DNA of 58,407 nucleotides, from positions 1 through 58,407 of the forward strand of contig CAYPCM010000004.1 in assembly GCA_964409225.1 (NCBI GenBank), in the 5' to 3' direction. This DNA is from an uncultured Candidatus Saccharibacteria bacterium. Lineage in GTDB: Bacteria; Patescibacteriota; Minisyncoccia; JACPXH01. Shown here piece by piece: positions 46,947 to 52,037 of this stretch. A model generated the notes under the pieces. It searched no databases. It was not told where the DNA came from and worked only from the letters and a program-made list of their open reading frames with translations. The translations under genes were made by a program, and so were the position numbers. Position 1 is the first letter of the stretch. Each line of letters starts with the position of its first letter.

Positions 46947-46989
46947 GCCCCATTGGTCTTATTGGTCTTATTAGACCTATAGGTCGGTC

Positions 46990-47400
46990 CTATTTAATCT
47001 CCGCCTTCGCCCCGGCTGCCTCAAGCTTACCCTTGAGCTCATCGGCCTCTACCTTCGAGATTCCCTCTTTAACCGTTTTCGGCGCGCCGTCCACAAGATC
47101 TTTCGCTTCTTTCAGCCCCAGACCCGTAACGTCGCGCACCACCTTGATGGTGTTTATCTTCTGCTCCCCGGCAGCTGTAAGCACGACGGTAAACGACGTC
47201 TGCTCTTCAACCGCGCTCGCCTCCCCCGCGCTTGCGCCCGGAGCCGCGGCCATCATTACCGGCGCTGCGGCTGAAACGCCGAACTTATCCTCTAGCACAT
47301 GGACGAACTCCGAGAGCTCAAGCACGCTCAAACTCTCGATCTGACTCACCAACTCCTTGAATTTGGCTGGCACCTCCGCCTTTTTTGCTTCATCGAACAT
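46990..47400 (-). CDS. rplL: 50S ribosomal protein L7/L12
   Basis: [34 protein letters not shown]. Confidence 0.98.
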
Positions 47401-47490
47401 AATAATCTTCTTACAGTTTATGGAGTTAAACTTCGACCCAAGAACTAATGCGATAAAGATCTATTGGACCTATTGGTCCAATGAGACCCA

Positions 47491-48012
47491 TCAACCACCG
47501 CCCCCGACCCGCCCCAGCACCCGCACCAACCCAGTAATATTCCCTTGCAAAACCCGGACGAATCCACTCATCGGCGCCGCAATCGAACCCGCCACCTGCC
47601 CGAGGAGCGCCTGACGGCCCGGGAGTTTCGCGAGCGCTGTAATCTGGTCGGCCGACACCCAATTGCCGGCCACGTACCCGCCAAGCAAAACCAATTGTTC
47701 GGCCCCTTTGCGAAACTCAACCAGCGCTTTGGCAAACCCCGACTCTTCGCCCCGACCGATCGCCAGCCCCACCTGCCCCGCGTGGCCCTCGAGGAGAGCC
47801 CCGCCCAGCCCGAGCCCCGCCAGCGCCCGCTTGAGCAAGGTCTTTTTTGCTACGGTATAGCGTCCTGCGAGCGGCCGGATCTTTCGGCGCAACGCGGCAA
47901 TCTGTGCTGTGGCGAGGCCGGTGAAATCAGTCGCAACCACAACCGGCGCGCCTGCAAGCGCACTCTTGATATCCGCCACCCGTTCAATTTTCTTGGCTTT
48001 GGTAAGAGGCAT
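47491..48012 (-). CDS. rplJ: 50S ribosomal protein L10
   Basis: DFTGL, LRRK, VAKKTL, LAKLPGR; upstream of rplL. Confidence 0.95.
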   Translation of the reverse strand: MPLTKAKKIERVADIKSALAGAPVVVATDFTGLATAQIAALRRKIRPLAGRYTVAKKTLLKRALAGLGLGGALLEGHAGQVGLAIGRGEESGFAKALVEFRKGAEQLVLLGGYVAGNWVSADQITALAKLPGRQALLGQVAGSIAAPMSGFVRVLQGNITGLVRVLGRVGGGG

Positions 48013-51257: not shown

Positions 51258-51312
51258 AAAATTGATCTTATTAGTCTTATCAGGCCTATTCGACTTATTG
51301 GTCTTATTAGTC

Positions 51313-51906
51313 CTATCGTCCCCAAATCTGCCTCTTCCTCTCTTCAATCCGCTTCTGAAAAAGCCGTTCTGTCCACCCGCCTTCTTTCACAAACTGCTCT
51401 TCGAGCGCCCGAATTTGTCGGTCCAGCAGAAAATTCACCTGATGGATGAGGCAAATCGCCGCATTCGCCGCCGTCTCCGGCTCGTCTAAATAAGACCTAT
51501 AAGTCCAATAAGTCCTATCTGACTTATCTGACTTATTGGTCTTATCCGTCCTATCGGACCTATACACCAACCCCCTCACTGCCTTAGCTTCCGGATCATC
51601 TTTCCCCCACTGCCTTAAGCCCCGCTGGCGCAAAAAGTCCTCATAGTCCTCTAATAACTCCTGAAACGATGCCCGCGCAACCCCGAGGAGCTTGAGCTCG
51701 CCTTTCTCAGAAGTTCGCTCGGTCGAGCCCTCCACGATATTTTGCTTGCCGGATCGCGCGGCTTGCACCATCTGGTCCGTCGTCCTATTGGACCTATATG
51801 ACTTATCGGACTTATCCGTCGCTCGAACGTAGCGGTCGCAAAATTCCACCGTGTAGTCGTAAATAATCACCGCCTGCTGATAAGATTTAAGTTCTCTATA
51901 GCTCAT
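51313..51906 (-). CDS. Four-helix-bundle protein with suffix domain (23S-IVP/Avd-like family)
   Basis: YRELKSYQ, DQMVQAARSGKQNIVEGS, VARAS..ELLEDYEDFLRQR, FVKEGG.TE. Confidence 0.88.
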   Translation of the reverse strand: MSYRELKSYQQAVIIYDYTVEFCDRYVRATDKSDKSYRSNRTTDQMVQAARSGKQNIVEGSTERTSEKGELKLLGVARASFQELLEDYEDFLRQRGLRQWGKDDPEAKAVRGLVYRSDRTDKTNKSDKSDRTYWTYRSYLDEPETAANAAICLIHQVNFLLDRQIRALEEQFVKEGGWTERLFQKRIEERKRQIWGR

Positions 51907-52037
51907 ATTCGTCTTACTAGCTGATAGACCCTATCAGTCCTATTGGTCTTATTAGTCCTATCGGCCTTATTTGACTTATCCGTCCTATCGCCCCAGCAGA
52001 TACAACTGCTTCACCTCTTGAGCCGTCAGCGCGCGGT

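Follow-up and report, generated by a model that had tools for sequence, protein, structure and literature searches.

The window, by which we mean the whole stretch of 58,407 nt that was analysed, belongs to the 883-kb genome of a small groundwater bacterium. Its minus strand carries a gene of 197 aa for a four-helix bundle with a C-terminal suffix (hereafter 4HB-suffix gene; 51313..51906), followed by a gene for a TPR/polytopic membrane protein of 946 aa counted from the ATG at 51257 (48417..51257), rplJ (47491-48012; Pfam Ribosomal_L10) and rplL (46990-47400; Pfam Ribosomal_L12 and Ribosomal_L12_N). The 4HB-suffix protein matches TIGR04258, the C-terminal 4helix_suffix model, over residues 143-191 (75.6 bits, cut-off 40) and TIGR02436 over its N-terminal four-helix-bundle region (36.2 bits, cut-off 24). 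The match to PF05635 (23S_rRNA_IVP) reaches 30 bits, under the gathering threshold of 33.8, and covers profile positions 4-73 alone, because the place of the last helix is taken by an array-coded insert and the suffix. Searches of the protein against Pfam and NCBIfam profiles returned four-helix-bundle families only, with no match to bAvd in Pfam and none to an HUH (Y1) nuclease or transposase, and PADLOC and PHROGs likewise gave no match. The family is very large, with relatives in at least 8000 clusters and 586 loci confirmed in one-genome-per-species data, and shows 50-72% protein identity across phyla; no function has been assigned to it. Upstream of the gene lies a LamG surface-protein gene.

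Inspection of the minus-strand sequence and the ORF translations revealed ten arrays of the quasi-palindromic nonamer xATARGNCY between window positions 46936 and 51988, all on the minus strand and in one orientation. Strict ATARG cores inside them number 47 on the minus strand and seven on the plus strand, with the minus strand ahead in each array, and the arrays share identical stretches of 14-23 nt with one another. Array A1 (51926..51988) flanks the 4HB-suffix gene on its 5' side. It is preceded by a 51-nt copy of the end of a LamG module and consists of seven units (GATAGGACG GATAAGTCA AATAAGGCC GATAGGACT AATAAGACC AATAGGACT GATAGGGTC), the first of which contains the TAG stop codon of a leftover LamG 3'-end fragment. 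Inside the gene, A2 (51780..51815; four units, read as DKSDKSYRSNRT) occupies internal site 1, which a weak alignment to 2GSC (E 0.084) would place in the loop between helices 1 and 2. A3 (51492..51563; eight units, read as RSDRTDKTNKSDKSDRTYWTYRSY / YRSDRTDKTNKSDKSDRTYWTYRSY) occupies internal site 2, between the bundle and the suffix helix. A4 (51263..51316; six units) forms the 3' flank; the 4HB-suffix gene has its TAG stop within the first unit, and the array ends 6 nt before the TPR start codon. A1 and A4 have a 23-nt direct repeat in common, and no inverted match between them exceeds 6 nt.

The TPR gene hosts A5 in its N-terminal tail (51135..51179; five units, read as PIGPISPISPIGPIG in frame +1) and A6 at an internal site (49580..49660; nine units, read as NRTDWTDRTDWVDKSNRTDRTNRTDR in frame 0). 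A6 adjoins a hairpin element, GGATTCCGGGTCGAGCCCGGAATGACA, and two more units follow up to 49705. An array of 7-nt units is also present within this gene, at 50321-50353. A7 (48386..48403), just past the TPR stop, has two units only and is the weakest of the ten. A native ATAAGTCC word (48109-48116), which the leaders of relatives also have conserved, lies 16 nt upstream of A8 (48051..48093; four units) in the 5' region of rplJ. A9 (47463..47482) lies in the rplJ-rplL spacer, with two strict units there and four loose ones over 47455-47492, and A10 (46936..46987) runs from the rplL stop codon (AAATAGGACC...) to the stop of the convergent ORF 44973-46946.

All of the arrays that the first-pass annotation had listed, at the gene flanks, at two sites within the gene, in the TPR gene and around rplJ and rplL, are present, and its observations of a single orientation and of different frames for the two arrays of the TPR gene were borne out. 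That none occur elsewhere in the window is true for arrays of at least three units; the 2-unit matches at 38493 and 54204 are both at chance level. The array upstream of rplJ is likewise real, with one correction to its label, the "L10 leader". This name is positional only, because Rfam RF00557 (L10_leader) had no match at E <= 0.1 within 46800-52100, where the sole Rfam match was Arrc08 with 28 bits, far under its 219-bit threshold.

Distribution of the arrays in the genome

A genome-wide scan for chains of at least three cores at 9-nt spacing returned 16 chains, 12 of which lie at C4:46.9-52 kb, compared with 0, 0, 0, 0 and 1 chains in five block shuffles. Among the four chains outside this cluster, the one at C1:109583-109627 is a true array, the one at C10:18322-18348 is ambiguous, and those on C24 and C57 are a different 7-8-nt repeat; TRF adds one array of 2.3 units at C1:25642. 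The ten arrays of the window are therefore nearly all such arrays of the genome, and the mapping that the first-pass annotation had set as a check yields a clustered rather than a uniform distribution. The probability of finding at least 10 of 13 arrays in one stretch of 5066 nt is about 1e-20, or about 2e-18 allowing for all stretches.

Contigs of four DNA runs from one study match the window, and one run-X4 contig has nine gap letters within 46800-48297; a look-up of RNA runs listed none that contains the locus. Contig junctions between arrays and between the two GGAATGACA hairpins, as well as an apparent GIY-YIG-less junction from 52035 to 52414 that matches an internal LamG module, were rejected and read as repeat artefacts, because all of their sides are under 30 letters.

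Association of the repeat with the gene family

Arrays of at least three units were surveyed within 10 kb on either side of the gene at 80 loci from many phyla. Counted from the start of the gene, they lie at -30 to -100, +81, +305 to +350 and +513 to +580, with hardly any at other positions in this range; beyond 1 kb from the gene only five were found in about 1 Mb. Of the 76 loci with enough flank, 16 have strict 2-unit arrays upstream, 19 have them downstream and 36 at site 2, against 4 of 1520 control windows; the pattern used for this count misses the GATCGGNCC variants of high-GC lineages.

Codon choice was compared in 81 genes with GC contents of 34-71%. At the three tyrosine positions encoded by the repeat, TAT and TAC occur 50/3, 55/17 and 44/1 times (149 vs 21 in sum). 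Tyrosines elsewhere in the gene are encoded by TAT 33, 19, 28, 34 and 33 times vs TAC 45, 25, 38, 35 and 35 times (147 vs 178). Arg131 is encoded by AGG in 39 genes, AGA in three and CGN in none, whereas other arginine positions are mostly CGN. Synonymous sites are frozen at the repeat-coding positions, where the protein code would permit change. Judged from sequence, the nonamer is the cognate repeat of this 4HB-suffix family.

At the level of whole genomes the link between gene and array is loose. In a survey of 401 class genomes, nine had a TIGR04258 match, 18 had arrays of at least four units and four had both, with no hit for a reversed control pattern. The sampled kin are not independent, and one family, f43, contributes most of the cases. 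Five of the nine TIGR04258 genomes lack arrays of at least four units. Of five array-rich genomes without a TIGR04258 match, four have the slot occupied by a divergent PF05635 gene. About ten genomes have an array and no gene found, most of them having been searched with TIGR04258 only.

The surroundings of the family loci are diverse. Among the downstream ORFs, of which 73 of 74 were scanned, 11 encode Cas1, Cas4 or Cas3 and eight restriction-modification proteins. Neighbours are mostly co-oriented with the family gene (63 of 79 upstream, 50 of 74 downstream).

Recurrent sites in related genomes

Orthologues of the TPR gene are present in 221 of the 401 class genomes. The same-genus relative G001 has no 4HB-suffix gene, and a decayed solo array of six units lies exactly at the place that the gene occupies in the genome studied here (G000). 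In the alignment of orthologues that the first-pass annotation had suggested for confirming the arrays as insertions, the G001 TPR protein lacks A5 and shows a 55-residue gap at A6 with a 2-unit GATCGGNCC remnant, as against nine units in G000. The TPR protein of L017 is 25% identical to that of G000 and carries A5 at the same place and ISPMGPISPITPS aligned to the A6 position in another reading frame. An N-tail array and one at the corresponding internal position are thus common to the two proteins, with frames that differ. At 28 other TPR-orthologue loci (about 115 kb) a single 3-unit array was found in total.

The ends and spacers of the rplJ-rplL operon are occupied repeatedly. Arrays lie in the rplJ-rplL spacer in G240, G260 and G198, at the rplL stop in G240 and G198, and upstream of rplJ in G240 and G104, and the ATAAGTCC word was found in 7 of 11 rplJ leaders examined. 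These slots and both sites of the TPR gene are array sites in family f43 too. In two members of this family, G278 and G075, the 4HB-suffix gene is 16-19 kb from rplL, and in G240 gene and rplL are on different contigs; in G104 and G198 the arrays are scattered over many contigs. G296 has the leader array, and a family-alignment search found no 4HB-suffix gene there. In G001, which has no nonamer arrays at the N-tail and rplJ-rplL sites, a plain PF05635 gene with 7-nt arrays on its flanks lies in the rplJ-rplL spacer. Co-loss of the gene and the rplJ-rplL arrays was considered and rejected, since among 17 genomes arrays are present in 6 of 14 with a gene and in 1 of 3 without one. The order surface protein, 4HB gene, TPR gene is common to two families, and within one genus the same slot carries either a suffix-type or a divergent 4HB gene.

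Folding and strand preference

Folding was better than in shuffled sequences for six of the ten arrays (z -2.3 to -9.1). The strongest is A3, a 60-nt self-complementary hairpin (z -9.1), and the set includes the A9 hairpin (z -4.0), A8 (z -3.1) and A10 (z -2.3). A1 (z -1.0), A4 (z -0.3) and A7 (z +1.7) showed no self-folding relative to shuffles. A region of 891 nt folds with z -5.7.

The hairpin at site 2 was more stable in sense in 33 of 80 genes and in antisense in 45, with two ties (p 0.14). The sense strand has no fold advantage, so there is no support from this test for a role specific to the sense transcript. A bias with respect to transcription, another check set in the first-pass annotation, was sought with the commoner 7-nt arrays, and none was seen between co-directional genes (7 vs 12 and 4 vs 5). 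Inside ORFs, sense 7-nt arrays exceed antisense ones (12 vs 2 and 5 vs 1), an excess that we attribute to stop codons in the antisense reading.

Relation to known repeat systems

REP/BIME elements are short palindromic repeats associated with the RAYT transposase, an HUH protein. The arrays resemble them in that palindromic repeats lie at gene ends and operon spacers and can form RNA or ssDNA hairpins (here A8, A9 and A10 fold), and in that a dedicated gene is flanked by its own repeats. In contrast to RAYT, the protein here is a four-helix bundle without an HUH match, and the repeats are tandem 9-mers that are tolerated in frame within genes. The arrays also recall other small dispersed repeats, namely the Rickettsia palindromic elements (RPE), which can sit in frame inside ORFs, and the heptameric STRR repeats of cyanobacteria, which consist of tandem short units across the genome. 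To our knowledge, neither is tied to one cross-phylum protein family or to fixed positions in and around its gene.

A search of published papers found none on the 4HB-suffix gene with nonamer arrays. Searches on PF05635 returned only DGR work, and nothing relevant on heptanucleotides, tandem repeats or intervening-sequence proteins was among the papers listed.

Proposed nature of the arrays and alternative explanations

We tentatively propose, with slightly less than an even chance of being right, that the 9-nt arrays are a hairpin-repeat family resembling intervening sequences (IVS) and REP elements, and the nucleotide-level partner of the TIGR04258 gene family. Across phyla the arrays travel with the gene, both of whose ends they occupy, as well as two sites in it that code for loops. 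The repeat also occupies a few recurrent slots in this CPR lineage, the rplJ-rplL ends and spacers and two permissive loops of the TPR protein. The arrays may act as nucleic acid, in the form of hairpin-forming or protein-binding modules, and are probably bound by the 4HB-suffix protein, which would recognise them. They may have originated at unit-like native words, such as ATAAGTCC in the rplJ leader and AAATAG/AAATAA at the rplL stop, and could then expand, contract and swap units via slippage and recombination between arrays. On this reading, the tight cluster in the window results from a chance adjacency of the gene, the TPR gene and rplJ-rplL, and not from deposition over short range. A cis element that travels with so large a family and overrides codon choice offers a concrete and testable partner for it. 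The arrays further indicate that essential operons, and membrane proteins in two reading frames, can take up short repeats without lethal effect, which is of relevance for the annotation of many low-complexity inserts in CPR proteins.

The first-pass annotation had likewise attributed a cognate repeat to the 4HB gene, and this part agrees with the fixed offsets across phyla and the synonymous constraint, and with the 7-nt arrays that four-helix-bundle paralogues lacking the suffix have of their own. Its alternative, that the repeat marks transcripts for binding, may hold; six of the ten arrays form hairpins, but their stability has no sense-strand bias in the 80 genes. It had also suggested that the repeat is deposited nearby, possibly through RNA. 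In such a scheme the cassette seeds its own repeat within a few kb, via template switching or gene conversion at a stalled fork or via an RNA copy, as might be expected from ten of about 13 arrays lying in 5.07 kb in one orientation (47 vs 7 cores), from the identical stretches of 14-23 nt among them and from the gene-less same-genus genome that lacks the N-tail and rplJ-rplL arrays. We nevertheless consider it quite improbable, since family f43 has arrays at these slots too, with the gene 16-19 kb off in G278 and G075 and on another contig in G240, the arrays of G104 and G198 are dispersed over many contigs, far-flank arrays are rare (the five beyond 1 kb), and the single reverse transcriptase (RT) of the genome is retron-like and unlinked. 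An unlikely, somewhat better candidate is a mobile cassette for which the arrays serve as portable recombination arms, with solo arrays as landing pads or footprints. The unrelated neighbourhoods of the family, with their Cas and restriction-modification genes, the mostly co-oriented neighbours, the 50-72% identity across phyla, the decayed solo array that G001 has in place of the gene, the 23-nt direct repeat at both gene flanks and the exchange of suffix-type and divergent 4HB genes in one slot would all suit it. Yet no recombinase is linked, the order of surface protein, 4HB and TPR genes in two families looks old and vertical, and the read contigs contain no reliable gene-less junction, all sides being under 30 letters.

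Plain microsatellite slippage, or selection for tripeptide repeats, unconnected to the gene would account for the variable copy number (nine units in G000 vs two in G001 at the TPR internal site) and perhaps for the gap letters in the run-X4 contig. It is already contradicted by the cross-phylum positional pattern and we regard it as very improbable: ten sites here, and loci across phyla, share one degenerate unit, two frames are used where arrays are translated and other arrays are non-coding, synonymous sites are frozen, and shuffles give 0-1 chains. Even less credible is that the gene is part of a diversity-generating retroelement (DGR), as an Avd that would partner a reverse transcriptase and target the surface-protein gene beside it. 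The fold of PF05635/TIGR02436 is shared with Avd, the DGR accessory protein (PMC10053308). A nucleic-acid-binding role is plausible, and the LamG surface-protein gene and the copy of its module end do lie upstream. There is, however, no RT in the window or nearby, the only one in the genome (PF00078, on C45) being retron-like by NCBIfam and under every cut-off, the bAvd model does not match, and no DGR feature accounts for tandem nonamers. We know of no tandem repeats as a feature of DGRs.

Plain PF05635 genes, 7-nt arrays and the 23S rRNA gene

The 23S rRNA IVS of Coxiella and Leptospira can bear an S23p/PF05635 ORF (PMC4990558). They resemble the locus in that a small PF05635-family ORF sits on a selfish-looking insert with self-complementary bounds, in highly transcribed RNA genes or operons, with a patchy distribution and with a protein that has no assigned role. 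The locus differs in that its gene lies between protein-coding genes rather than in rRNA and has an extra suffix domain, and in that the tandem nonamer also occurs inside its own ORF and in neighbouring ORFs. An IVS-type stem around the ORF is not seen here either, because the flanks A1 and A4 are direct and not inverted repeats and do not pair.

A broader reading, possible though doubtful, is that of a two-part system with a small "keeper" protein that is not an enzyme. It would read tandem 9-nt words placed at the gene that encodes it, in the operon of the ribosomal stalk (by the native ATAAGTCC) and in neighbour genes, and so control processing, stability or recombination there. The PF05635 IVS proteins and the 7-nt arrays would then be the same system in another dialect. 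If true, this would be a kind of two-part system not yet described, and the cis element of the 4HB-suffix family may in any case help with a long-standing problem, the function of the "23S rRNA intervening-sequence proteins".

Inverted repeats around the ORF are present for the plain PF05635 genes of this genome, which have no suffix. Inverted 7-nt arrays flank all four plain PF05635 genes examined. The 23S rRNA gene (C24:6928-10271) also holds inverted 7-nt arrays. It contains inserts of 121, 115, 159 and about 80 nt, among others, three of which are located at hairpin loops, and its hairpin inserts are built of 7-nt arrays, a further likeness to the 23S rRNA IVS.

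Gene content of the locus and its nonamer arrays

Every gene between 46.9 and 52.0 kb of the window, which is part of contig C4, lies on the minus strand of this genome (883 kb, 60 contigs, 56% G+C). A LamG surface-protein gene is followed by a small GIY-YIG gene (52038-52307), a four-helix-bundle gene encoding 197 amino acids (51313-51906), a TPR membrane-protein gene encoding 946 amino acids (48417-51257), rplJ and then rplL. The four-helix-bundle protein passes the cut-offs of NCBIfam TIGR02436 (36.2 bits, cut-off 24) and TIGR04258 "4helix_suffix" (75.6 bits, cut-off 40), and its score for Pfam PF05635 (30 bits) is slightly below the threshold of 33.8. 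A 51-nt copy of the LamG module end (NRALTAQEVKQLYLLGR and stop) is found directly 3' of the GIY-YIG gene (window 51989-52352), its stop falling within the first nonamer unit. In G001, a genome of the same genus, the GIY-YIG gene is not present at the corresponding place. Judging from the sequence, it looks as if this gene had been inserted in the LamG 3' end and a second gene end had come with it or been left behind.

The first-pass annotation had described arrays of a degenerate 9-mer in one shared orientation around the bundle gene, and this description was confirmed: all ten arrays (xATARGNCY on the minus strand) were found where it had placed them, with 47 strict ATARG cores on the minus against 7 on the plus strand. 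In genome-wide mapping, 12 of 16 chains of at least three spaced cores fell in this stretch, with 0-1 per shuffle (n=5), and the chance of such clustering is about 1e-20. Outside the stretch we found a clear array in sense orientation just past a gene's stop (C1:109583), a short one (C1:25642) and a doubtful one (C10:18322). Translation of the arrays gives D/N/Y-K/R-S/T within the bundle gene and the internal TPR site and P-I-G/S in the TPR N-tail, and the third frame yields TAG or TAA from every unit. The stop codons of the bundle gene and of the leftover LamG fragment are supplied by arrays, and the rplL stop is the start point of another.

A small hairpin element (GGATTCCG...CGGAATGACA) is present in 17 copies genome-wide, for example at window 48250-48303 and 49661-49690; each of its three window copies has a nonamer array beside it, and one is translated within the TPR gene. 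One contig of the DNA run X4 that covers window 46800-48297 shows nine gap letters and a G>T change at 48089, which may reflect an rplJ-leader array that differs by one unit in another sample.

The nonamer as cognate repeat of a gene family

At least 8000 relatives of the bundle-suffix protein were found. Scanning a single genome for each species gave 598 stretches, 586 of them confirmed, and the best 80 of these 586, from many bacterial phyla and with 47-71% identity, were analysed as loci. An alignment of 36 proteins revealed variable tripeptide repeats at two sites, after residue ~27 and at residues 115-139, while Y115, Y136 and Y139 were invariant in all 36. Across the 80 loci, arrays of at least three units recur at four offsets, namely directly before the gene, at +81, between about +305 and +350, and right after the stop, and only five lie more than 1 kb from the gene in ~1 Mb of flank. 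Of the 76 loci with enough flank, 16 had strict 2-unit arrays upstream, 19 had them downstream and 36 at site 2, compared to 4 of 1520 control windows; the GATCGGNCC-type units of high-GC lineages escape this count.

At the three repeat positions Tyr is encoded by TAT 149 times and by TAC 21 times (81 genes, G+C 34-71%), whereas five other Tyr columns of the same genes show 147 TAT and 178 TAC. Arg131 is encoded by AGG (39) or AGA (3) and never by CGN, which is the main choice for Arg elsewhere in these genes. What is constrained, or else continually homogenised, is therefore the word in the DNA and not the peptide alone. Together with the fixed offsets, this bias shows that the first-pass proposal of a cognate repeat was correct and applies to the family in general. 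Our literature searches returned no description of such a gene-plus-nonamer cassette.

Among the downstream neighbour ORFs (73 of 74 scanned), 11 were Cas1/Cas4/Cas3 and 8 belonged to restriction-modification. The bundle-suffix gene is frequently found within CRISPR-Cas operons of Deltaproteobacteria, Nitrospirae and other phyla, directly 5' of cas4/cas1 or cas3, and at other loci within restriction-modification operons (neighbourhoods of these two kinds were seen at L025, L027, L030, L032, L035, L043, L045, L051, L066, L075 and L090). At L014:540-1586 (G052), a neighbouring gene begins with an antisense nonamer array, and its hydrophobic N-terminus consists of repeat throughout (MKNLTLIRLIGLIRPIRLIGLIGLIGLIG).

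At the genome level, TIGR04258 was found in 9 of 401 genomes of the class (8 above cut-off) and arrays of at least four strict units in 18, four of which also carry TIGR04258; a reversed control pattern had no match in the 401 genomes. In five array-bearing genomes without TIGR04258, a family-alignment search recovered a divergent PF05635-type gene in four, all of family f43, and no bundle gene was detected by this alignment in the array-bearing G095; gene absence in the remaining array-bearing genomes is defined by TIGR04258 alone, and these kin are not independent.

The TPR gene in related genomes

G001 has no TIGR04258 match, and the ~115 nt from its LamG end to its TPR start hold a decayed six-unit solo array. 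Its TPR protein (54% identity to that of the window) is without the N-tail array, and at the internal site there is a 55-residue gap with two GATCGGNCC units left. In locus L017, which from matching coordinates we infer to be contig C18 of G240 in another family, f43, a surface-protein gene, the bundle-suffix gene and the TPR gene follow one another in this order. Although identity between the TPR proteins falls to 25% here, arrays are again present in the N-tail and where the internal site aligns, the second of them in another frame than in the window (ISPMGPISPITPS). In 28 further TPR orthologue loci (~115 kb), one 3-unit array and seven 2-unit matches were found.

Within genus g43, the slot of the bundle gene is occupied by the suffix type in G198 and by the divergent PF05635 gene (59.2 bits) in G104; G155 and G260 have this same divergent gene directly 5' of a TPR-like start. 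In four f43 loci (L136, L138, L139, L148) the divergent gene 5' of the TPR gene carries a different 9-nt repeat, translated KGEKGEEKGEMG. In G104 this repeat recurs in the N-tail of the downstream TPR gene, a second gene-plus-neighbour pair sharing one repeat.

Hairpin folding and 7-nt arrays

Units beginning with T are self-complementary. Stronger folding than in shuffled controls was seen for six of the ten arrays, namely those at site 2 of the bundle gene (z -9.1), in the rplJ-rplL spacer (-4.0) and in the rplJ 5' region (-3.1), the two in the TPR gene (N-tail and internal) and the one 3' of rplL (-2.6 to -2.3 for these three). Both bundle-gene flanks, which share a direct 23-mer, site 1 and the 2-unit array fold no better than shuffles. 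Over an 891-nt region the arrays pair with one another (z -5.7). In 80 genes the site-2 hairpin had no sense advantage (33 sense vs 45 antisense, p 0.14), with folding energies of -22.5 (sense) and -23.3 kcal/mol (antisense), both better than the -17.6 kcal/mol of shuffles. The symmetry therefore belongs to the word in the DNA, with no sign as yet of the transcript in particular.

Inverted 7-nt arrays bracket all three plain PF05635 genes (without suffix) of this genome, at window 54578-55040 (gene 54610-55014, minus strand), C56:787-1101 and C1:68770-69015, and one in G001 (L104:3857-4225). The unit differs per gene (AATTTTG, TTTTAGC, ATCAAAA and GTAGCTA), and as predicted from sequence the arrays would pair into a stem round the ORF in the transcript. 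The 23S rRNA gene (C24:6928-10494, L145) is strongly enlarged, measuring 3567 nt for model positions 1-2027, with inserts of 121, 115 and 159 nt at hairpin loops, one of ~80 nt and further ones at other places. The inserts resemble intervening sequences that have no ORF, and the gene likewise contains inverted 7-nt arrays. The rRNA intervening sequence is the classical home of the PF05635 protein family according to PMC4990558. The occurrence of 7-nt arrays both at PF05635 genes and in the 23S rRNA gene ties array-built hairpins to rRNA intervening sequences.

Of the 538 tandem repeats in the genome, 157 have a period of 7, and 40 of these 157 share GATTTTT, the commonest unit of all. One (GATTTTT)n array lies in frame within the TPR gene (window 50321-50353, translated KNQKSKIKN), at a place where the G001 orthologue has unrelated residues; in the metagenome runs this 7-mer attracted contigs from many different surroundings, up to a very high depth.

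Local deposition and alternative origins

The first-pass annotation had further suggested that the repeat is deposited locally, possibly through RNA. This proposal was not supported. In related genomes arrays occupy the same slots: the rplJ-rplL spacer in G240, G260 and G198, the rplL stop in G240 and G198, and the region 5' of rplJ in G240 and G104. The bundle gene lies 19 kb (G278) and 16 kb (G075) from rplL on the same contig, and G104 and G198 carry arrays of at least four units on many contigs. Among nine more genomes, only G296 and G075 had an rplJ-rplL array of at least three units, and in G296 a bundle gene of the window's kind did not turn up in the alignment search. Over the 17 genomes checked, rplJ-rplL arrays occurred in 6 of 14 with a gene and 1 of 3 without. 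The rplJ-rplL region of G001 has no nonamer arrays; other hairpins stand in their places, and between inverted 7-nt arrays in its spacer there is a PF05635 gene of the plain type (121.7 bits).

The native word ATAAGTCC, the core of the unit, occurs in a conserved hairpin context in the rplJ leaders of 7 of 11 genomes (window 48109-48116; L152, L154, L156, L157, L158, L159), and the rplL stop context AAATAG/AAATAA equals the beginning of a unit. Such unit-like words may seed arrays, and the arrays may cluster in the window because three favoured loci adjoin there. In the rplJ leader, ATAAGTCC could be a seed, could resemble the L10-binding site for functional reasons or could be there by coincidence. 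The likeliest reading, to which we give slightly less than an even chance, is an IVS/REP-like hairpin-repeat family that is coupled to the bundle gene family. Native words resembling a unit would seed it, and the protein would probably read it.

Membership in a diversity-generating retroelement (DGR) was rejected, as the genome's single reverse transcriptase is of a retron-like type and encoded on a different contig, and no bAvd match was obtained; known defence or phage families (PADLOC, PHROGs) gave no match either. The reverse transcriptase (C45:1652-2206) has its best match, below cut-off, in the retron St85 family and lies between a sugar-transferase gene and dinB.
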